A DNA stretch of 45,926 bases from an uncultured Candidatus Saccharibacteria bacterium (lineage in GTDB: Bacteria > Patescibacteriota > Minisyncoccia > Phycocordibacterales > XYD1-FULL-46-19): positions 1-45,926 of the forward strand of contig CAZVBR010000001.1 of assembly GCA_964625755.1 (NCBI GenBank). The letters run 5' to 3'. The notes beneath the pieces are model-generated. The model was given only the letters and a program-made list of their open reading frames with translations, was not told where the DNA came from and ran no database searches. A program made the translations under genes and the position numbers. Positions within the stretch are counted from its first letter, which is position 1; each line of letters opens with the position of its first letter. Below, piece by piece: positions 2,116 through 30,237 of this stretch.

Positions 2116-2259
2116 AGGTATTTTGAATTGATCCAGTGACCGAAGAACAGAATATATCTTGATAGTCAAGTTCGTTTTTTTATGGTATAGTCACAATAAA
2201 TTGTCCGGTAATTGATGGCGAACATCAAGGTTTTTTATTTGACGTTAAGTGATCGACGA

Positions 2260-4908
2260 ATGAATGAGAAATATATAAATATCAAAGGAGCTCGGACTCA
2301 TAATTTATCAATAGAAAAATTGAGTATTCCGCGAGATAAGCTGGTGGTGTTAACTGGTATTTCCGGTTCCGGCAAATCAAGCCTGGCTTTCGATACGATC
2401 TTTGCGGAGGGTCAGAGACGTTACATTGAGTCATTATCGGCCTACGCCCGTCAGTTTTTAAAGCAGATGCCGAAGCCGGATGTTGATGAGATAAGCGGTT
2501 TGTCGCCGGCTATTTCGATCGATCAAAAAACTCGCTCGGGCAATCCTCGTTCTACTGTGGCCACGATCACTGAGATCTATGACCATCTCCGGGTTTTATT
2601 TTCCCGGATCGGTAAGCCTCATTGTTTGGTGTGTGGCAAGTTGATCAAGAAAATGAGTCATCAAGAAATAATTGATCTGATCTTGGGGCAGATCGAGAAA
2701 GCGATAAACGATTCAAAGATCGAGTCGATGTCGATTCAGATCTATGCTCCGTTGGTGCGTGGCCGGAAGGGGGAGTACTATCAATTGCTCTATGATCTCT
2801 TGGATAAGGGGTACCGGGAGGTGTTGATCAATGGTCGACGGCATAAATTACGGGAAAGAATTTTTCTCTCCCGCCAAAAGCGTCATGATATTGATGTTCT
2901 GGTTGATGAAATTGATATAAATGAACTGTTATCGATCGGATCCGGTCAGGCGACCGTCAAAGGGTCGGTAGCCAAATTAATTCAAGAAGGGGCAAGAGAA
3001 CGGCTGGCGGAAGGCGTAGAGAGGTCGCTTAATGAATCGGATGATCTGGTTCGGCTGGTGGTCGGGGAATCCGGCAGATCAGAGAAAGTGCTTGATCAGG
3101 CTTACTCGCAACACTTGATCTCGGCTAAATTCTCTTGCCCGGAAGATGGTTTTTCCTATCCGGAAATAGAGCCCAGATTATTCTCTTTTAATTCTCCTTA
3201 CGGAGCTTGTCCGAGTTGTCATGGGTTGGGGACTGAGCATTTGTTTGGCGAAAAACTGTGCTCGGCCTGTCAAGGTACTCGCCTAAGACCGGAAGCTCTG
3301 GCGGTTCGAATCGGGGGGAGCGAAGATCAGCCCGGGAAAAATATTGTTGAAATTACCGAATTATCTATTCGGGATGCTTATGATTTTTTTGGTTCCTTGA
3401 ATTTGACTCAAGCCGAGCAGACCATCGCCGAGATGCTCCTAAAAGAGATCACTGATCGTTTGGGTTTTTTGTTGTCGGTCGGTTTGGATTACATTACTTT
3501 GAATCGGAAAGCCGGAACTTTATCCGGCGGGGAAGCGCAGAGGATCAGATTGGCTTCTCAGTTAGGTTCTCGCTTGGTCGGCACTCTGTATGTTCTGGAT
3601 GAGCCGACGATCGGGTTACATCCTCGGGATAACGATCGTTTGATAAAAACTCTCCAAGAGTTAAAGAACTTGGGTAATACCATCATTGTTGTTGAGCATG
3701 ATCCGGAAACTATCTACTCTTCGGATTGGTTGGTTGATATCGGGCCGGGGGCCGGGCGACACGGTGGAAAGGTGGTTGTTTCGGAAAAGACCGAGAAGCT
3801 GTTAACTGAGAAAGAAAATAATTTTGGGTCCTTAACGGTAGATTATTTGCGGGAAGAAAGGGTGGTACCGGTTCCGGAGAAAAGGCGTACCGCCAAAAAG
3901 GGCAGTTTAAAGATCAGAGGAGGTCGAGTGTTTAATTTGAAGAATATAAATCTAGATCTTCCTTTGGGGAAATTAGTGACCGTAACAGGGCTGTCCGGTT
4001 CCGGTAAGTCGAGTTTGGTTTATGAAATAATATACAAGAATCTTCAGGCCAGATTTGATCGTCGGTATCGAAGTAATGAAGTATTTAATTGTAAGAGTTT
4101 TTCCGGGGTTGAGTATCTAAGCCGGGCTATATTGATCAATCAATCTCCAATTGGTAGGACCCCCCGGTCGAATCCGGTAACTTATGTCGGAGCTTGGGGT
4201 TACATCCGGGAATTGTTGGCCTCAACCGAGTTAGCCCGGGCTCGGGGTTGGAAGCCGGGAAGGTTCTCATTTAATGTCAAAGGAGGAAGATGTGAAGCCT
4301 GTCAGGGTAAAGGGTCGGTGGCGGTAGAGATGCATTTTTTGCCGACAATCTATGTAACATGCGATGTTTGCGGCGGTCGGCGGTTTCGTCAAGACACTTT
4401 GGAAGTAAGATACAATAAAAAAAATGTTGATGACATTCTTCAGTTGACAGTCGAAGAGGCTTTGGAGTTTTTTGCGGATATTCCGGCTATTCATGATCGG
4501 TTAGCTACTTTGGCCGAAGTCGGACTTGGTTATCTGTGTTTGGGGCAATCGGCGACTACTTTATCCGGCGGGGAAGCTCAAAGGGTCAAGATCTCCTCGG
4601 AGCTGTATCGCCCTCTGACCCGGAAAACCATTTATATTTTAGACGAGCCGACCGTGGGGCTGCATTATGAGGATGTGAACAATCTGGTTGCGGTTTTGCA
4701 GAAGTTGGTGGAACGAGGTAATACTGTGATCGTTATAGAACACAACTTGGACGTGATCAAAAATTCTGATCATATAGTTGATCTGGGGCCGGAGGGCGGA
4801 GACAAGGGGGGCAAGATAGTGGCGGTAGGGACTCCGGAGAATATCTCTCAGGATCACAGATCGATCACCGGAAAATACCTAAAAAAGGTCTTACCCAAGA
4901 GAAAATGA
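2260..4908 (+). CDS. uvrA: excinuclease ABC subunit A (UvrA)
   Basis: ORF opens at TTG 2212 / ATG 2215. ATG 2260 gives the canonical N-terminus MNEKYINIKGARTHNL. Two ABC modules (GISGSGKSS, GLSGSGKSS; two LSGGEAQR signatures) and Cys-rich zinc modules. The start codon is uncertain (2212, 2215 or 2260). Confidence 0.95.
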   Translation: MNEKYINIKGARTHNLSIEKLSIPRDKLVVLTGISGSGKSSLAFDTIFAEGQRRYIESLSAYARQFLKQMPKPDVDEISGLSPAISIDQKTRSGNPRSTVATITEIYDHLRVLFSRIGKPHCLVCGKLIKKMSHQEIIDLILGQIEKAINDSKIESMSIQIYAPLVRGRKGEYYQLLYDLLDKGYREVLINGRRHKLRERIFLSRQKRHDIDVLVDEIDINELLSIGSGQATVKGSVAKLIQEGARERLAEGVERSLNESDDLVRLVVGESGRSEKVLDQAYSQHLISAKFSCPEDGFSYPEIEPRLFSFNSPYGACPSCHGLGTEHLFGEKLCSACQGTRLRPEALAVRIGGSEDQPGKNIVEITELSIRDAYDFFGSLNLTQAEQTIAEMLLKEITDRLGFLLSVGLDYITLNRKAGTLSGGEAQRIRLASQLGSRLVGTLYVLDEPTIGLHPRDNDRLIKTLQELKNLGNTIIVVEHDPETIYSSDWLVDIGPGAGRHGGKVVVSEKTEKLLTEKENNFGSLTVDYLREERVVPVPEKRRTAKKGSLKIRGGRVFNLKNINLDLPLGKLVTVTGLSGSGKSSLVYEIIYKNLQARFDRRYRSNEVFNCKSFSGVEYLSRAILINQSPIGRTPRSNPVTYVGAWGYIRELLASTELARARGWKPGRFSFNVKGGRCEACQGKGSVAVEMHFLPTIYVTCDVCGGRRFRQDTLEVRYNKKNVDDILQLTVEEALEFFADIPAIHDRLATLAEVGLGYLCLGQSATTLSGGEAQRVKISSELYRPLTRKTIYILDEPTVGLHYEDVNNLVAVLQKLVERGNTVIVIEHNLDVIKNSDHIVDLGPEGGDKGGKIVAVGTPENISQDHRSITGKYLKKVLPKRK

Positions 4909-9794: not shown

Positions 9795-9869
9795 TGGTCG
9801 GGCTGCCGGGATTCGAACCCGGAGTCTCACGAACCCGAATCGTGTATGTTGCCGTTACACCACAGCCCG
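9795..9869 (-). tRNA. tRNA-Pro (anticodon CGG), CCA encoded
   Basis: Hand-folded cloverleaf: acceptor CGGGCTG/CAGCCCG, anticodon stem CACGA/TCGTG with loop TTCGGGT, T-arm CCGGG-TTCGAAT-CCCGG, discriminator A plus CCA. Confidence 0.9.
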
Positions 9870-9966
9870 AATATTATTTCCTGGTTGGAAATAAACTTTC
9901 TTTCTTAATTAAAGCATATTAAGATGTTATTTCCAAGATTTTGGTGTTTTAGGGGGATTGGTTTTT

Positions 9967-10043
9967 TGGTGGACCCGACCGGATTCGAACCGGTGGCCTC
10001 CTGCGTGCAAAGCAGGCGCTCTAGCCAACTGAGCTACGGGCCC
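9967..10043 (-). tRNA. tRNA-Ala (anticodon UGC), CCA encoded
   Basis: Acceptor GGGCCCG/CGGGTCC with G3:U70, anticodon loop TTTGCAC, T-arm ACCGG-TTCGAAT-CCGGT, ACCA end. Confidence 0.92.
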
Positions 10044-12651: not shown

Positions 12652-12727
12652 TGGTGGACTCGAGGGGAGTTGAACCCCTGACCTCCGCAATGCGAATGCG
12701 GCGCTCTACCAACTGAGCTACGAGCCC
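12652..12727 (-). tRNA. tRNA-Ala (anticodon CGC), CCA encoded
   Basis: Acceptor GGGCTCG/CGAGTCC with G3:U70, anticodon loop TTCGCAT, T-arm AGGGG-TTCAACT-CCCCT, ACCA end. The 61-aa ORF 12614-12799 overlapping it is spurious. Confidence 0.92.
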
Positions 12728-16930: not shown

Positions 16931-17006
16931 TGGTGGACCTGAGGAGACTTGAACTCCTGACCCCTCGCATGCCATGCGAGTGCTCTACCAGCTGAGCTAC
17001 AGGCCC
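16931..17006 (-). tRNA. tRNA-Ala (anticodon GGC), CCA encoded
   Basis: Acceptor GGGCCTG/CAGGTCC with G3:U70, anticodon loop ATGGCAT, T-arm AGGAG-TTCAAGT-CTCCT, ACCA end. Confidence 0.92.
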
Positions 17007-19849: not shown

Positions 19850-22800
19850 ATGAAACCTTACGATCATCAACGAATAGAAAAGAAGTGGCAGCGTCAGTGG
19901 GCCGCGGATAAGATCTATCAGACAAAGGAAAGATCACAAAAACCAAAATTTTATTGTTTAGATATGTTCCCGTACCCTTCGGGTGAAGGTTTGCATGTTG
20001 GTCATCCCCGGGGGTACATTGCCACTGACATTATCTCTCGTTATCAGAGAATGAAAGGCAAAAACGTGCTTCATCCGATGGGCTGGGATGCTTTTGGTTT
20101 GCCGGCAGAAAATTATGCTCTTAAGAATAAGGTCCATCCTTCCCAGGCGGTAAAAAAGAATGTTAAAAATTACAAACGACAGTTGTCGATGCTCGGTTTT
20201 GATTATGACTGGTCAAGAGAAATAAATACCACCGATCCGGAGTATTATAAATGGACTCAATGGATATTTTTGCAATTATATAAAGCCGGGCTGGCCTATG
20301 AATCTTATGAGCCCATAAATTGGTGTCCGTCGTGTCAAACCGGATTAGCTAATGAGGACCTTGAAGACGGCCGGTGTGAAAGATGTAACTCGGAGATAGA
20401 AAAAAAACCAATGCGCCAGTGGGTACTGAAGATCACTGATTACGCGGAAAGATTACTGAATGATCTTGATGGATTGGATTGGCCGGAATCGATCAAAGAA
20501 GCTCAAAGAAATTGGATCGGAAAAAGCGAAGGGGCGGAGATAGATTTTCCGTTAACCGGGGAAAAGCGGCATTATGTTTTATTACATGGTTACAAAAGCT
20601 CTCCCGAGAAAAATTTTTTTCCTTGGTTGGCTGAGGAGCTAAAAAGGCAAGGTCATACGGTTGAGGTACCGACTTTACCGGATCCGGATGAACCTGATGT
20701 CCATACCCAGAGAGATCATGTTCTGGAAAGTTGTCATTTTGACGAAAAAACCGTATTGCTGGGACATAGTTTGGGCAGTGTGGTGGCATTAAAAGTCCTT
20801 GAAGAATTAGATCGACCGATCGAAAAATTGATCCTGGTGGCCGGATTTTCTGAGCCGAATTTTAAAGACAAGAAAAGATCTTTTGAAGAGAAATTCGATT
20901 GGCAGTTTGATTTTGAGAAAATAAAAAGTTCAGTCCGGGAAGTTTCCATTTTAAGGGATGAAAAAGATACGGCGGTGCCGGCTGAAAGAGCCGAGACCTT
21001 AAAAAAACACCTAGCCGGAGAGATTTTTGATTTCAAGGCGGAAAAGCCGCATGTAATCGGATCAGTCGAACCGATGGTTTTGGAGGCCTGTCGGGATAAG
21101 ATCAAGGTGTTTACCACCCGGCCTGACACTTTGGGCGGGGTTACTTATATGGTCCTAGCCCCTGAGCATCAGTTGTTGAAGAACAAAAGGGCCGATATCG
21201 AAAATTGGTCCGAAGTTGAAAAATATATTTTGGAAGCTCAAAAGCGTTCAGAGATCGAGCGGGTGGCCGAGGGTCGGGTTAAGACCGGGGTCAGGTTGAA
21301 GGGCTTGAAGGCCGTAAATCCGTTCAGTGGTGAGGAGTTGCCGGTGTTTGTGGCAGATTTTGTTCTGTCTCATTACGGCACCGGAGCTATAATGTCGGTC
21401 CCGGCTCATGACCAAAGGGACCTTGAATTTGCCCGGAAGTATCAGTTGCCGATAAAGCCGGTCATTTTAAAACCGGAAGAATTTAGTCGCAGTTATGTGA
21501 TGGGGGTTGAGAAGGAGGAGCTTGAAAAGCTGGGGGTAGAGATCACAAGGGAATCAAAAGACGGAGAGTATGAAGTTTTCATTCCCAAGAATCGGTTGGT
21601 TGATTATCAAAAAATGATCCGAACAAAAATTAAACCGGGTTACTGGAATGAATTTAGTACTGATCGAGGATTTTATTTTATTTTTAAGCATAAAAACGGG
21701 CAAATAGAAGAACAACTTCTAACTGATGAAAGTAATGGCCGTATCGATCAGCTGACAAAAGATCTAAACGGACAAGGGTCGGAAATTGATCCGAGAAATA
21801 TTTATTCCTGGTTGGCAGAAAATGAGTTTTACCGGGATCTGTTGATCCACGAAGAGCCGGGGGTGTTAGTTAATTCTGGAGATCTCTCAGGCCTTGGGAG
21901 CGAGGAGGCTAAAAAACAGATCATTGCTCGGTTTGGAAATAAACTGGTTACTTATAAATTACGGGACTGGGTTTTCTCTCGGCAAAGATATTGGGGGGAA
22001 CCGATCCCGGTTATTCATTGTCGTGAGTGCGGAGTGGTGCCGGTGCCGGAAAAAGATCTTCCGGTGAAGTTGCCAAAAGTGAAAAGTTACGAACCGACCG
22101 GTACCGGTGAATCACCTTTGGCCAATATTGCTTCATGGGTCAATACCGCCTGTCCGAAATGCGGGCGAAAATCAAAACGGGAAACGAATACCATGCCTCA
22201 GTGGGCCGGTTCATCTTGGTACTACTTGCGATTTATCGATCCGGATAACGACCGGTCCTTGGTGAAAAAAACCAAAGCTCAAAAGTGGTTGCCGGTAGAT
22301 ATGTATATAGGCGGTACTGAGCATGCCACTCGCCATTTGATATATGCTCGTTTTTGGCATAAGTTCTTGTATGATCAAGGGTTTGTGTCTACACCGGAAC
22401 CTTTTGCCAGGATCGGAAAGAATCTTGGTTTGATCCTGGGAGAAGATGGTCGAAAGATGAGTAAGCGTTGGGGGAATGTGATCAATCCGGATGAGGTGGT
22501 AAGTAATTACGGGGCAGATACCTTGCGAGTGTATGAAATGTTCATGGGTCCTTTTGAGTCTGAGATAGCTTGGAGTACTAAAAATATGATCGGCTCTCGG
22601 AGGTTCTTGGAGAAGGTGTGGCGTCTGAGTGAGAAAGTCGGTCTCAAAGGGGAATTGTCGCCCGATGCTAGAAGAGTATTACATCAAAGTATGAAAAAAG
22701 TTGAAGCGGATATTAATTCTTTTTCATTCAATACAGCTGTGTCAACCTTAATGTCTTTGGTTAATGTTTGGGATAAAGAGGAGAAGATACCGGTAAACGA

Positions 22801-23182: not shown

Positions 23183-24235
23183 ATGTCTAAACAATCACCA
23201 ATAATCTTATCTTTTAAACCGAAGGAAGCAACCAGTTTACTTTTGGATGTTTTGTCGGATCGGGCTCGAGATATAGTAGTTAAAAGATATGGTTTAGGTG
23301 GCAAGGCTTCGCGGGAAACTTTAGAGACCATCGGAAAAGAGTATAATATTACTCGCGAAAGAGTGCGGCAGATAGAAAATTTTGCCTTGCGAACTATAAA
23401 AAAATCGCCGGTTTATGGAGAGTTTGGTCATTATTTTGATGAATTGAAGACCTTAATGGAAAGTTATGGCGGGATAGTTCATGAGAGGTCTTTTTTGGAA
23501 TCGGTTGTCAAGGATAAAAGTGGACAGAATCACATACATTTTTTGTTGGTGGTAGCCGAAGCTTTTATAAAAATTAAAGAGGATAACGATTTTCACCATC
23601 GCTGGACCGTTAATCCCGATATGGCCGAAAGAGTTCAGCAGTCAATACGAAACTTATGTTCTGATTTTAGTCGTGATGATCTGGTGGCCGAGGATGTAGT
23701 AGTTGAAAAGCTTATCGGTGAATTGAGGGATGTCTTGGAAACCGCCGGCAATCGTCAGATGGACTTGGCAAGGAATTTGTTGGCTATTTCAAAGCAGTTA
23801 ACCAGGAATCCTTTGGGGGAGTGGGGGTTGGCTGATTCTCCAAATGTTAAAATGCGCGGGATCAGGGATTATGCCTATCTGGTGTTAAGGCACCACGGGT
23901 CGCCTATGCATTTCCGGGAGGTGGCCAAGAGAATTAACGAGTTGTTCGGGCGGAAGGCTCACTCAGCCACTTGCCACAATGAATTGATAAAAGATGAACG
24001 TTTTGTTTTGGTCGGACGCGGTTTGTATGCTCTGACTGAGTGGGGTTATTCGCAGGGTGTTGTGTTGGATGTTGTAAAAAATATACTGCTCAGACACGGA
24101 CCTTTAACCAAAGAAGAGATCATCAAACAGGTTCTTAAAGAACGTTACGTAAAAGAGAATACTATTTTGGTTAATTTACAGAATGACCAAATTTTTGGCC
24201 GAAATGAATTTGGTCAATATTTTGTGGTTAAATAA
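23183..24235 (+). CDS. DNA-binding protein with a sigma-70 region-4-like HTH and a C-terminal HARE-HTH-like winged helix
   Basis: 350 aa. TLETIGKEYNITRERVRQIENFALRTIKK resembles sigma70 region 4.2. C-terminal GSPMHFREVAKRINELF...FVLVGRGLYALTEWGY resembles the HARE-HTH of RNAP delta. No sigma region 2. Confidence 0.65.
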   Translation: MSKQSPIILSFKPKEATSLLLDVLSDRARDIVVKRYGLGGKASRETLETIGKEYNITRERVRQIENFALRTIKKSPVYGEFGHYFDELKTLMESYGGIVHERSFLESVVKDKSGQNHIHFLLVVAEAFIKIKEDNDFHHRWTVNPDMAERVQQSIRNLCSDFSRDDLVAEDVVVEKLIGELRDVLETAGNRQMDLARNLLAISKQLTRNPLGEWGLADSPNVKMRGIRDYAYLVLRHHGSPMHFREVAKRINELFGRKAHSATCHNELIKDERFVLVGRGLYALTEWGYSQGVVLDVVKNILLRHGPLTKEEIIKQVLKERYVKENTILVNLQNDQIFGRNEFGQYFVVK

Positions 24236-24388: not shown

Positions 24389-25600
24389 ATGATTTTTTTT
24401 GGGGATTTTGCTCAAGCTGTCGGAGTATGGGTATTTGGCTTGGTTTATTTGGTGGCGCCGTTTTTTTTGTTCATTATTGCCTGGCATTTATGGGTTAAGT
24501 ATGTTCAACTGTGTAATATAAAAAAGCAGGAATGGGTTTTGTTGGATATTAAAATACCAAAAAACCTATCCAGATCGCCGGAGGCTATGGAGGTGGTCTT
24601 GAGTACGTTCCATCAGCCGGGCGATGGTACTTTTTTTAAGCGTTATTGGCACGGTGCGGTTCAAACTTGGTTTTCTTTGGAGATAGCTTCTTTAGCCGGG
24701 GAGGTCCATTTTTATATTTATACTCAAAAATTCTTTAAAAATCTCATCGAGTCTCGGATCTATTCCGAGTACCCCATGGTTGAGATATACGAAGTGGATG
24801 ATTATGCCTGGAGCTTTCCTTATGGCCAGTCTGATTCTGATTGGGATCTCTGGGGGTGTCATTTTAAATTAGAGAAACCCGATCCATACCCGATAAAAAC
24901 CTATGTTGATTATAATCTAGGTTCCCGGGACGGAGTAAAAGAAGAAGAGAAGATCGACCCGATCGCTCCTATGCTGGAAACCATGGGTTCCATTGGTCCC
25001 GGCGAGCAGTTATGGTTTCAGATGATTATTCGGGCGGCTAAAAAGCGTTTCAAGAAAAAAAATAAGTGGTTTGAAAAGGCTGACTGGAAAGAGGAGGGTC
25101 AGAATTTATTAAAAAGCCTGTTAAAACGTGATCTGGGTAAAGATGCTTCTCCATCAGAGACGAATCTGTCTTCCGGGGAAAAGCTGGTGGCCGAAGCGGT
25201 GGAGCGAAATATATCCAAATTAGGTTTTGATTGTGGTATTCGTGGTATGTATTTGGCCAAAAAAGACAATTTTGATCAATCAAATGTCGTGGCTCTGATC
25301 AGTATGTTAAAACAATTTAACTCTCTTAATCTTAATGGTTTTAAGCCGGCCAATACCACCTCTCTTAAATACTCTTGGCAGGATTGGAAAAATTGGCGGC
25401 TGAATAAGATAAAGTGGGGAATGTATGATGCCTATCGTCGAAGAGAGTATTTCAATCCTCCTTACCAGTATACACCGATCACTTTAAATACCGAGGAATT
25501 GGCTACCATATATCATTTTCCCGGGGAAGTGATACAGACTCCCACTTTAAGCCGGATCGCATCCAAGCGAGGAGAGCCACCGGTTAATTTACCAATTTAG
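24389..25600 (+). CDS. hypothetical membrane protein (lineage-specific, unknown function)
   Basis: 403 aa. N-terminal TM hairpin, then a soluble region containing WVLLDIKIPKNLSRSPEAMEVVL, WFSLEIASLAGEVHFYIY and C-terminal LNTEELATIYHFPG. From memory this resembles the N-terminal module of some large CPR/Firmicute DUF87/VirD4-like ATPases, but no ATPase domain is present here. Confidence 0.6.
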   Translation: MIFFGDFAQAVGVWVFGLVYLVAPFFLFIIAWHLWVKYVQLCNIKKQEWVLLDIKIPKNLSRSPEAMEVVLSTFHQPGDGTFFKRYWHGAVQTWFSLEIASLAGEVHFYIYTQKFFKNLIESRIYSEYPMVEIYEVDDYAWSFPYGQSDSDWDLWGCHFKLEKPDPYPIKTYVDYNLGSRDGVKEEEKIDPIAPMLETMGSIGPGEQLWFQMIIRAAKKRFKKKNKWFEKADWKEEGQNLLKSLLKRDLGKDASPSETNLSSGEKLVAEAVERNISKLGFDCGIRGMYLAKKDNFDQSNVVALISMLKQFNSLNLNGFKPANTTSLKYSWQDWKNWRLNKIKWGMYDAYRRREYFNPPYQYTPITLNTEELATIYHFPGEVIQTPTLSRIASKRGEPPVNLPI

Positions 25601-28470: not shown

Positions 28471-30237
28471 ATGCGATCAAGTGAAATTAAAAAAAGGTTC
28501 TTAAATTTTTTTACAGCTCGAGGTCATGTTGTTTTACCGCCGGTCTCACTGTTGCCTCAGGACGATCCTTCAGTGTTGTTTACCACTGCCGGGATGCAAC
28601 AGTTGACACCGTATTTGATGGGAGAACCTCATCCGGCCGGCCGACGCCTGGTAAATGTGCAAAAATGTTTACGGACGGTTGATATCGATGAAGTGGGTGA
28701 TAAGACCCATAATACTTTTTTTCAGATGCTGGGTAACTGGTCGCTTGGTGACTATTTCAAGAAGGAAGCCATTGCTTGGAGTTATCGGTTTTTGACCTCT
28801 AAGACGGAGGGCTTGGGGTTGGATCCCGATCGTCTTTATGTGACGGTATTTTCCGGCGGGGCTCAGGTTCCGGCCGACACGGAGTCAGCTGGCATTTGGC
28901 AAGATCTCGGGATACCTAATGAACGAATATATTATTTATCCGATAATTGGTGGACTCCGGGTCCGGATGGTCCGGCCGGTCCGGACACGGAAATGTTCTA
29001 CGACCTTACTGATGAGGGTCTGGATCTTAAATCAGTTGAGGAATTTAAAAAGGCGGATGCCAAACAGCAGGTGGTCGAGGTGTGGAACAATGTTTTTATG
29101 GAGTATGAGCAAAAAGGGGGAGTGATAAAAGACAAATTAATCCAACAAAATGTTGATACCGGAGCCGGTTTTGAACGCTTGGTGGCTGTAATGCAGGGCA
29201 AGACAAATGTTTTTGATACCGATCTTTTCCTTCCCTTGCGATCGAAGCTTGGTCAGTTTGTTTCAGTCCGTGATGACCGATCGGAGAGGATAATCGTGGA
29301 TCATATCCGAGCCTCTGTTTTTTTGGTGGCCGACGGAGTCAGGCCTTCCAATACCGAGCAGGGGTATATTTTACGAAGACTTTTACGTCGAGCAATTCGC
29401 TTTGGTTATGGTTTGGGTATTGGGTCTGAGGCGTGGTCTGAATTGATCGAGACAGTAATAAAGCAATACGGTGAGGATTATCCTGAATTACCGGAAGGAA
29501 GAAATGAGATTTTGCGGGTTATTTTAGAAGAGGAAGGTAAATTCCAGGAAACTTTAGCCAAAGGCTTAAAAGAGTTTGAAAAACAAGTTTCCGGAAGTAT
29601 TGATGGGCCGACTGCTTTTAAACTTTTTTCAACCTACGGATTTCCTTGGGAAATGATAAAAGAACTAGCCCATGAGAGAGGGGTGGAAGTGGCACCGGAT
29701 GAAGATTTCCGGGCGGCTTTGGCTGAGCATCAAAAAAAATCCCGAACCGGATCAGAGAAACGTTTTGCCGGGGGGTTGGCGTCCCAGGAGGAGCAGGCCG
29801 TGAAATACCACACCGCCACGCATTTATTGCACCAGGCCTTGATCGATGTTTTGGGAGAGCATGTGACCCAAAAAGGCAGTCATATTACCGGTGAGAGGTT
29901 GAGATTTGATTTTTCTCACTCGGAAAAATTGACCGCGACGGAAAAGGAGGCTCTGGAAAAAAAGGTTAATGAGAAGATCTTGGCTGATCTGCCGGTGAGA
30001 AAAGTAACCCTGTCGCGTCAAGAGGCTGAGGAAACCGGAGCTAAAAGGTTTTTTCAGGAAAAATACGGAGATGAAGTTACAGTTTACTATATAGGCGATT
30101 CTCTGGCTGATGCTTATTCAAAAGAATTTTGTGGCGGTCCGCACGTTGATCGTACCGGGGTGCTGGGTAAGTTCAAGATCGCAAAAGAAGAATCGGTGGC
30201 CGCCGGGATCAGGCGGATCAAGGCAAGGTTGGAATAG
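28471..30237 (+). CDS. alaS: alanine--tRNA ligase, short form (catalytic + helical + minimal editing domain, no C-Ala domain)
   Basis: 588 aa. N-terminus IKKRFLNFFTARGHVVLPPVSLLP, FTTAGMQQ, GAGFERLVAVMQG (motif 3 region), editing zinc motifs HTATHLLH and CGGPH. The ORF ends about 30 aa after CGGPH. Confidence 0.92.
   Translation: MRSSEIKKRFLNFFTARGHVVLPPVSLLPQDDPSVLFTTAGMQQLTPYLMGEPHPAGRRLVNVQKCLRTVDIDEVGDKTHNTFFQMLGNWSLGDYFKKEAIAWSYRFLTSKTEGLGLDPDRLYVTVFSGGAQVPADTESAGIWQDLGIPNERIYYLSDNWWTPGPDGPAGPDTEMFYDLTDEGLDLKSVEEFKKADAKQQVVEVWNNVFMEYEQKGGVIKDKLIQQNVDTGAGFERLVAVMQGKTNVFDTDLFLPLRSKLGQFVSVRDDRSERIIVDHIRASVFLVADGVRPSNTEQGYILRRLLRRAIRFGYGLGIGSEAWSELIETVIKQYGEDYPELPEGRNEILRVILEEEGKFQETLAKGLKEFEKQVSGSIDGPTAFKLFSTYGFPWEMIKELAHERGVEVAPDEDFRAALAEHQKKSRTGSEKRFAGGLASQEEQAVKYHTATHLLHQALIDVLGEHVTQKGSHITGERLRFDFSHSEKLTATEKEALEKKVNEKILADLPVRKVTLSRQEAEETGAKRFFQEKYGDEVTVYYIGDSLADAYSKEFCGGPHVDRTGVLGKFKIAKEESVAAGIRRIKARLE

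Follow-up and report, generated by a model that had tools for sequence, protein, structure and literature searches.

The stretch of DNA considered here, hereafter called the window, covers positions 1 to 45,926 of contig CAZVBR010000001.1, and its leuS gene encodes a leucyl-tRNA synthetase (LeuRS) that holds, inside its CP1 editing domain, a second hydrolase of unrelated fold, which is catalytically intact by sequence and kept across a large part of the Patescibacteria. Editing by aminoacyl-tRNA synthetases (aaRSs) relies on a handful of hydrolytic folds, and LeuRS, with its one CP1 editing site, is the textbook case. The nested domain, called insert 1 below, is predicted to be a complete and catalytically equipped serine hydrolase of the YdeN/RBBP9 type, apparently active, and more than 100 LeuRS clusters of Patescibacteria, i.e. 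the candidate phyla radiation (CPR), share this nested-hydrolase architecture. As to its role, it is quite possible, if still short of probable, that this enzyme is coupled to LeuRS and hydrolyses aminoacyl esters in quality control.

Regarding the host, the leuS product is a LeuRS of the bacterial type (TIGR00396, 1003.7 bits for a curated cut-off of 548.4) and displays PF00133, PF13603, PF09334 and PF08264, i.e. the class I catalytic, LeuRS editing and anticodon-binding domains. It shares with the bacterial enzymes from Thermus thermophilus (1H3N, 2BYT) and Escherichia coli (4AQ7) the HIGH, KMSKS and AHDxRD motifs, the threonine-rich peptide as well as the anticodon-binding and C-terminal regions; compared to T. 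thermophilus LeuRS, however, its CP1 contains two extra nested domains, of 176 and 122 residues. Across 120 relatives, the HIGH motif is invariant at positions 1, 3 and 4, with V (117 sequences) or I (3 sequences) at position 2, the threonine-rich peptide FTTRPDT is invariant bar P/A at one position, and the H, D, R and D of AHDxRD together with the key residues of KMSKS do not vary at all. The synthetic and editing sites are predicted to be intact in the window and in these 120 relatives, which indicates that the hydrolase is an addition to the canonical sites and not a replacement for them. The window would in this respect encode a functional bacterial-type LeuRS of a Patescibacteria (CPR, Paceibacteria-like) bacterium, and the opinion of the first-pass annotation, made from the letters of the window, that the synthetase is otherwise intact is upheld by the profile score and the four conserved motifs. 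Compensation by the guest for a degenerate CP1 site was considered and ruled out, the editing residues being invariant.

When the protein is aligned with solved LeuRS sequences, its residues 201-239 correspond to residues 202-240 of the T. thermophilus enzyme and its residues 416-544 to residues 241-367, leaving 176 residues (20567-21094) with no T. thermophilus counterpart, which split residues 240 and 241 (...EILFPVEGKE/VRIPVFTTRPDT...). Overall, the extra length of insert 1 amounts to about 176-185 residues, and its junctions read ...IDF/PLTGEK... and ...CRDKI/KVFTTR.... In T. thermophilus, the insertion point is a tight hairpin turn, at the tip of the first β-hairpin of CP1 and six residues before T247. 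The PF13603 match to the editing domain (188.6 bits) is split into two stretches, and the domain limits given by Cusack for T. thermophilus LeuRS also put the insertion point within the editing domain; the guest therefore lies inside CP1 and not in front of it. The first-pass annotation had located it at the entrance to CP1, which needs correcting on this point, while the sequence blocks and coordinates it quoted were all found by translation where it had put them, its range of about residues 234-417 was right and the extra residues are indeed in frame. As for the origin of the insert, its GC content and GC content at third codon positions (0.43 and 0.42) do not differ from those of the rest of leuS (0.45 and 0.47), and foreign DNA could be ruled out as far as composition is concerned. 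No Hint, intein or LAGLIDADG/HNH match was returned by the Pfam scan of the protein, and an intein, splicing or homing-endonuclease element was ruled out from these absent signatures, the junction sequences and the model of a single hydrolase domain.

Table 1. Coordinates of the leuS features in the window and placement of the free-standing hydrolase copies relative to leuS
Feature	Position	Strand	Remarks
leuS open reading frame (ORF)	19823 (TTG) / 19850 (ATG)..23125	+	uninterrupted frame; 1100/1091 aa; two in-frame inserted domains
HIGH motif, HVGH, aa 49-52	19994..20005	+	by translation; kept in 120 relatives
NWIGKSEGAEIDF, first β-strand of the CP1 hairpin	20510..20548	+	about residues 221-233 of T. 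thermophilus LeuRS
Insert 1, aa 234-418 (core aa 241-414)	20549..21103	+	nested YdeN/RBBP9-type α/β serine hydrolase (predicted)
H246-G247, predicted oxyanion-hole HG	20585..20590	+	H in 107/111 and G in 110/111 fused homologues
GHSLG nucleophile elbow	20762..20776	+	predicted nucleophile S307 at 20768-20770
D370...D373, candidate catalytic acids	20957..20968	+	D373 aligned with the YdeN and RBBP9 acid
H401, predicted catalytic His	21050..21052	+	H in 109/111 fused homologues and 160/162 site-1 copies
FTTRPDT, threonine-rich CP1 editing peptide	21110..21130	+	T247-T252 in T. thermophilus / E. coli numbering
GTGAIMSVPAHDQRD, CP1 editing motif (AHDxRD) with conserved Asp residues	21377..21421	+	by translation and alignment of relatives
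Insert 2, aa 545-666	21482..21847	+	α+β domain replacing the 9-residue loop 368-376 of T. thermophilus LeuRS
KMSKS motif, KMSKR, aa 869-873	22454..22468	+	by translation and alignment of relatives
Free-standing copies P0001, P0137, P0144, P0182	directly upstream of leuS	same strand	gaps of 3-37 nt
Free-standing copy P0173	directly downstream of leuS		Sua5/TsaC next
Free-standing copy P0162	1.35 kb from leuS		
Free-standing copy P0004	first gene of a tight operon ending in LeuRS		
Free-standing copies P0143, P0157, P0176			uninformative or negative for a leuS link

Taken alone, insert 1 matches the Ser_hydrolase family PF06821 (E=8.4e-12, 45.8 bits for a gathering score of 22; 41 bits with the whole protein) and, at the sequence level, YdeN of Bacillus subtilis (1UXO, E=2e-14) and human RBBP9 (E=3e-6). 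Its AlphaFold2 model, built from 32 homologues, reaches a predicted local distance difference test (pLDDT) of 95.6 and a predicted template modelling (TM) score of 0.91 and displays the strand-helix alternation of a minimal α/β-hydrolase; the best Foldseek matches of this model in the PDB are 1UXO and the RBBP9 entries 7OEX, 2QS9 and 9FCR (TMq 0.77-0.78, E-values from 6e-14 to 1e-10), the capped α/β-hydrolases coming far behind in the ranking. In other words, insert 1 shares with YdeN (1UXO) and RBBP9 (2QS9, 7OEX) a cap-less fold of about 180 residues, the HG, the G-H-S-x-G and the order of Asp and His (TM 0.77-0.85), but it is only 17-23% identical to them in structure alignments, is nested instead of free-standing, and belongs to a distinct subfamily, marked by Q287 (W elsewhere), D370 (S elsewhere), W351 and E407-P408. 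No homology was found to the known aminoacyl-tRNA editing folds, namely YbaK/INS (PF04073), tRNA_SAD/AlaX, DTD and B3/B4, as Pfam, NCBIfam and fold searches returned α/β-hydrolases only. Both the YdeN/RBBP9-type assignment proposed in the first-pass annotation and the hit in the α/β-hydrolase clan that it expected from a Pfam scan have thus been obtained.

The catalytic residues, which the same annotation had placed in the order HG, GHSLG, Asp and His, are present in that order and conserved well beyond the window. The predicted nucleophile S307 aligns to the Ser of the YdeN AHSLG motif and to S75 of RBBP9, and is a Ser in 109 of the 111 fused homologues and in 161 of the 162 copies at the CP1 hairpin (site 1); position 373 is D or E in 107/111 fused homologues and D370 is found in 106/111, the site-3 LeuRS copies keeping D370 only of this pair. 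All in all, HG, Ser, acid and His are each kept in 96-98% of the 111 fused homologues and in every host category. Since the median identity to the window among relatives is 63% for the LeuRS core and 42% for the insert, the retention of the catalytic residues in spite of this divergence points to selection on catalysis.

Regarding its spread, a homologous domain of about 185 residues is held at the same CP1 site by about 110 of the 120 closest LeuRS clusters, which are labelled Paceibacterota, Parcubacteria, Vogelbacteria, Taylorbacteria or Patescibacteria. The distribution of the hydrolase was established from a full-length LeuRS search and an index-free profile search; the search with the insert only in a word index of 5.8 billion proteins gave 8 matches, this index being coarse for short divergent domains. 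Scanning metagenome contigs with a degenerate motif (GHSLGSVVALK) retrieved 26 loci, of which 24 are nested in LeuRS and 1 is a free gene adjacent to leuS, and a single-protein scan of GTDB genomes retrieved 6 loci. The homologue search suggested in the first-pass annotation has in this way uncovered fused as well as free-standing relatives. Two GTDB contigs labelled "archaeon" and "Candidatus Woesearchaeota archaeon" (L006 and L007) also carry the nested hydrolase in a LeuRS of the bacterial type, whose identity to the LeuRS of the window is about 49%; this would be due either to mis-binning of CPR contigs or to inter-domain gene transfer.

These sequences are not new to databases, where they go under different names, e.g. 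"Leucine--tRNA ligase" in UniProt (A0A1G2QKE3, A0A0G0RJC7) and, for some of them, "alpha/beta fold hydrolase" at NCBI. Annotation pipelines thereby mislabel some essential synthetases as hydrolases, and such names together with miscalled genes hide LeuRSs. Many representatives seem to "start" at the hydrolase; for P0129 (L046 2167-5694, GCA_030647355.1), the public gene call of 897 aa begins from a Met inside the protein, just ahead of the hydrolase, the true ORF being of 1175 aa with the N-terminal half of LeuRS, and apart from this case, some are truncated by the ends of contigs. A split LeuRS with the hydrolase heading the second subunit was ruled out for P0129, where it is an artefact of gene calling. 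Directly upstream of the leuS gene of P0129, L046 also carries a free-standing Nudix gene. As for the architecture as a whole, the first-pass annotation knew of no described LeuRS of this kind, which stands in so far as no published description was found in the literature searched, with most subscription journals outside reach, but does not stand for the sequences, which have long been public as LeuRS or "alpha/beta fold hydrolase" and make up a widespread subtype in Patescibacteria. It is thus an undescribed and widespread variant of a well-studied enzyme, and not a new protein. That the architecture could stem from assembly or annotation, i.e. a chimeric contig or the read-through of two genes, is vanishingly improbable: the source is a metagenome assembly and some gene calls of relatives are wrong, as just seen for P0129, but LeuRS sequence flanks the hydrolase on both sides in one frame, over 100 independent clusters, drawn from many samples, show the same architecture, and a second contig (33,881 bp) carries a 1100-aa protein at least 90% identical to that of the window.

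Beyond what had been noticed in the first-pass annotation, the hydrolase occurs at another LeuRS site and in other hosts, and leuS of the window contains a second insertion of about 120 aa. This insert 2 is also inside CP1, between AHDQRD..LPIKPVIL and EPGVLVNSG, and its AlphaFold2 model has a pLDDT of 86.8. It matches no Pfam family, its best PDB match is not significant (E=0.018, TM <0.32) and it has no match in the word index of 5.8 billion proteins, with the same coarseness for short divergent domains; it does possess a conserved motif, PG[FY]WNE[YF]...F[IL]FK. The same site is occupied by a canonical Nudix domain with an intact box (e.g. GGIEKGEDEISAAIREIQEETGY) in the relatives P0018, P0019, P0037, P0054 and P0056 and in leuS of L001 (5533-8406), and is empty in other relatives. 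Insert 2 as a degenerate Nudix domain was ruled out, for it has no Nudix box, no Pfam match and a different predicted fold.

Insert 1 and insert 2 are found in every combination, in proteins of 915-1146 aa, and LeuRSs of 1300-1490 aa hold further inserts. At the CP1 hairpin itself, other guests are found elsewhere, namely a Nudix domain (P0035), a PD-(D/E)XK_3 nuclease-like domain (P0103) and an in-frame IS200-type Y1 transposase domain (P0190), and the LeuRS P0107 additionally contains a HAD domain. CP1 of CPR LeuRSs appears as a hot spot for nested domains. In a domain-insertion survey (2026), PF13603 was considered as insertion-only, with "zero instances of host function" in 213 events (PMC13114784), whereas in the window PF13603 itself acts as the host; the ability of CP1 to accommodate nested domains, be they hydrolase, Nudix, orphan fold or nuclease/transposase-like, was thus unseen in that survey. 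As the Y1 transposase and PD-(D/E)XK_3 domains sit in frame at this hairpin in other lineages, and the hydrolase at several sites and in several hosts, insert 1 could also be what remains of a mobile element or of a random insertion in frame, with a structural or regulatory role (docking, allosteric or ligand-sensing) and no turnover. Such a relic is very improbable, considering that Ser, His, acid and HG are kept at 96-98% in 111 copies that are about 42% identical and in every host category, that neither an intein/Hint/homing-endonuclease signature nor a compositional anomaly is seen, and that the domain is also encoded by ordinary genes of its own.

With 1.84 billion representative proteins as its target, the index-free profile search recovered 133 clusters at E<=1e-30. 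When the 148 best representative clusters are considered, about 79 have the size of a free-standing protein and, among the roughly 60 nested ones, LeuRS accounts for roughly 50. The latter fall into two classes, one with the hydrolase at the CP1 hairpin and the other with the hydrolase at a second site, some 60 residues past the RDW..RQRYWG block, and the occupation of two distinct sites implies that the hydrolase entered LeuRS at least twice. For ten free-standing close homologues (45-55% identical to the domain of the window), the genomic context was examined: six are adjacent to leuS and a seventh is within 1.4 kb of it (Table 1). The operon of P0004, from a DPANN archaeon (L004 6001-10882, GCA_020049755.1, labelled Pacearchaeota) has overlapping reading frames that encode, in order, the Ser_hydrolase, a generic Ser_hydrolase (GHSSG), a YbaK-like tRNA_edit protein (PF04073, 87.7 bits), a Ham1-like NTP pyrophosphatase and a LeuRS of the archaeal type (TIGR00395, 784 bits). 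The LeuRSs encoded beside a free-standing hydrolase are devoid of insert 1, being of 801-809 aa, or of 957 aa with a Nudix insert only, which amounts to a complementary distribution where the hydrolase is either fused to LeuRS or encoded next door. Besides, bacterial-type and archaeal-type LeuRSs are only about 30% identical, and since the hydrolase is found beside both, this adjacency is not one inherited gene order. It speaks for selection that keeps both activities together. The hydrolase is in this sense genomically tied to LeuRS even when unfused, including beside an archaeal-type LeuRS and a YbaK-like deacylase, and fusion at two LeuRS sites, an adjacent gene upstream or downstream, and the archaeal operon make this link between hydrolase and leuS a repeated one.

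LeuRS is not the only host. The subfamily is also present, with its catalytic residues kept in all cases, in single clusters of SecA, UvrA, Der/EngA, TsaD, a formyltransferase, ValRS and AlaRS (P0164, P0199, P0210, P0179, P0205, P0180, P0184). In addition, locus L041 (6816-9662) encodes a fusion of 948 aa that associates a Ser_hydrolase domain 51% identical to that of the window, His_Phos_1 and a class II aaRS (tRNA-synt_2b and HGTP_anticodon), which looks GlyRS-like by its motifs. In six of the nine host families, the host protein has to do with tRNA or aminoacyl-tRNA.

Regarding function, the nested domain would cooperate with LeuRS and add a hydrolytic module to its quality control, attacking an α-aminoacyl ester or a related acyl bond through an acyl-Ser307 intermediate, with a chemistry as in RBBP9. 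A charged tRNA ends in an aminoacyl-adenosine, to which valacyclovir, a nucleoside analogue esterified with valine, is chemically close. RBBP9 was reported as valacyclovir-activating in the title of Shenoy et al. (2020), as cited in PMC7730578, and it forms acyl-enzymes with single hydrophobic amino acids, for which a free α-amine is required (PMC8866121). Candidate substrates of insert 1 may include aminoacyl-tRNA(Leu) escaping from or unsuited to CP1, released non-cognate aminoacyl-adenylate, and small α-amino ester or thioester by-products of editing. The domain is tethered on a hairpin whose other end forms the threonine-rich pocket, which would keep it near the CCA end of the tRNA during proofreading. 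Homocysteine thiolactone is one of the editing by-products of class I aaRSs. BPHL (valacyclovirase) is described, in PMC10261862 and PMC4198189, as a serine α/β-hydrolase acting on amino-acid esters of nucleoside analogues and on homocysteine thiolactone, i.e. on α-amino acid esters and thioesters, a chemistry of the kind proposed here; it belongs, however, to a different α/β-hydrolase family, has a cap domain, is eukaryotic and shows no association with aaRSs, so that it provides an analogy only. The first-pass annotation made no choice between a role related to tRNA and an unrelated moonlighting activity; the balance now tilts towards a LeuRS-coupled role, because free-standing homologues stand next to bacterial leuS genes and, in the archaeal operon, with a YbaK-like protein.

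The alternative to a LeuRS-coupled role is that the domain is an independent guest, namely a housekeeping esterase or aminopeptidase (e.g. freeing hydrophobic N-terminal residues from scavenged peptides) that is carried by the essential and constitutive genes of small CPR and DPANN genomes, with no direct link to tRNA(Leu). This is unlikely, although several points speak for it: the subfamily is nested in TsaD and a formyltransferase besides aaRSs; about 79 of the 148 best clusters have the length of a free-standing protein; and RBBP9 is an aminopeptidase (PMC8866121). Other points in its favour also weigh against a LeuRS-coupled role, namely the nesting in SecA, UvrA and Der, which are unrelated to tRNA, and the three of the ten free-standing copies (P0143, P0157, P0176) that showed no leuS link. 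Both LeuRS sites accept Nudix, PD-(D/E)XK_3, Y1 transposase, HAD and orphan domains, and the unrelated domains hosted at the CP1 hairpin in other lineages suggest that this site is simply permissive. Further points count against the LeuRS-coupled role. The residues S76, Y99 and E108, which anchor the α-amine in RBBP9, have no recognisable equivalent, the sequence alignment giving L308, F333 and R343 of the window protein in a loop where it is unreliable; with its editing site intact, CP1 has no lost function obviously needing replacement; and the spacing and orientation of the two hydrolytic sites were inferred from known LeuRS structures. An independent guest, on the other hand, is hard to reconcile with the share of LeuRS among nested clusters (about 50 of about 60) and among motif-scan loci (24 of 26), with copies adjoining both types of leuS, which are about 30% identical and so exclude an inherited gene order, with an operon that includes a bona fide aminoacyl-tRNA editing domain, and with the six of nine host families acting on tRNA or aminoacyl-tRNA.

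Another explanation is self-protection, where the hydrolase, in concert with the Nudix, Ham1, histidine phosphatase and HAD partners seen in relatives, would destroy leucyl-adenylate mimics or other antimetabolites of LeuRS, by analogy with the resistance to aminoacyl-nucleotide antibiotics based on cleavage or modification in the microcin C and agrocin 84 systems. It would be in line with the Nudix domains of many LeuRSs, Ham1 in operons, His_Phos_1 in the class II aaRS fusion and HAD in P0107, as well as with the NCBIfam entry for an IleRS bearing an acetyltransferase domain (NF040702) and with a natural adenylate mimic targeting LeuRS (PMC5059758). It is nonetheless improbable: these clues are circumstantial throughout, genes of the toxin, transporter or producer kind did not turn up in the neighbourhood, a Nudix, Ham1 or phosphatase partner is absent from the window, where insert 2 is an orphan domain, and so broad a conservation fits housekeeping better than an arms race. 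Regarding NF040702, this IleRS with an N-acetyltransferase domain is likewise a class Ia synthetase equipped with an additional domain of a small-molecule-modifying enzyme, but guest fold, host and position all differ, the guest of the window being nested in the editing domain.

If the hydrolase does act in LeuRS-coupled quality control, the logic would be the same as for established editing modules (YbaK/INS PF04073, AlaX/tRNA_SAD, DTD, CP1), i.e. an additional hydrolase, either part of an aaRS or encoded next to it, that removes wrong aminoacyl products; it differs from them in that there is no fold homology and that its mechanism would use a covalent acyl-serine, an intermediate which, to our knowledge, is used by no aaRS editing domain. 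More broadly, YdeN/RBBP9-type hydrolases could form an unrecognised, acyl-serine class of proofreading modules for aminoacyl-tRNA or aminoacyl-adenylate, which CPR bacteria and DPANN archaea would have recruited repeatedly to LeuRS, either nested at one of two sites or linked in an operon, and now and then to another aaRS; so general a proposal is tentative and somewhat unlikely as a whole. Should it be true, it would add a new fold to the few domains of translational editing and give an ancestral function to the orphan YdeN/RBBP9 family. It would also give the bacterial YdeN branch its first functional context, RBBP9 having only recently been tied to single hydrophobic amino-acyl groups. For organisms with minimal genomes, the finding offers a concrete lead that can be put to the test, towards a further level of quality control in translation or towards a clearance of metabolites linked to LeuRS.

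As for other genes of the window, its AlaRS (28471-30237, + strand) and UvrA (2212-4908, + strand) belong to families that host the hydrolase elsewhere, and neither carries the hydrolase insert. This AlaRS is short, with 588 aa comprising the catalytic domain and tRNA_SAD and no C-terminal extension, and UvrA is of 898 aa. Directly 3' of leuS, positions 23183-24235 (+ strand) encode a 350-aa protein with Sigma70 region 4 and HARE-HTH, which is followed at 24389-25600 (+ strand) by an ORF of 403 aa with no Pfam match. Four tRNA genes are detected by Rfam on the - strand, at 9798-10043, 12655-12727 and 16934-17006.

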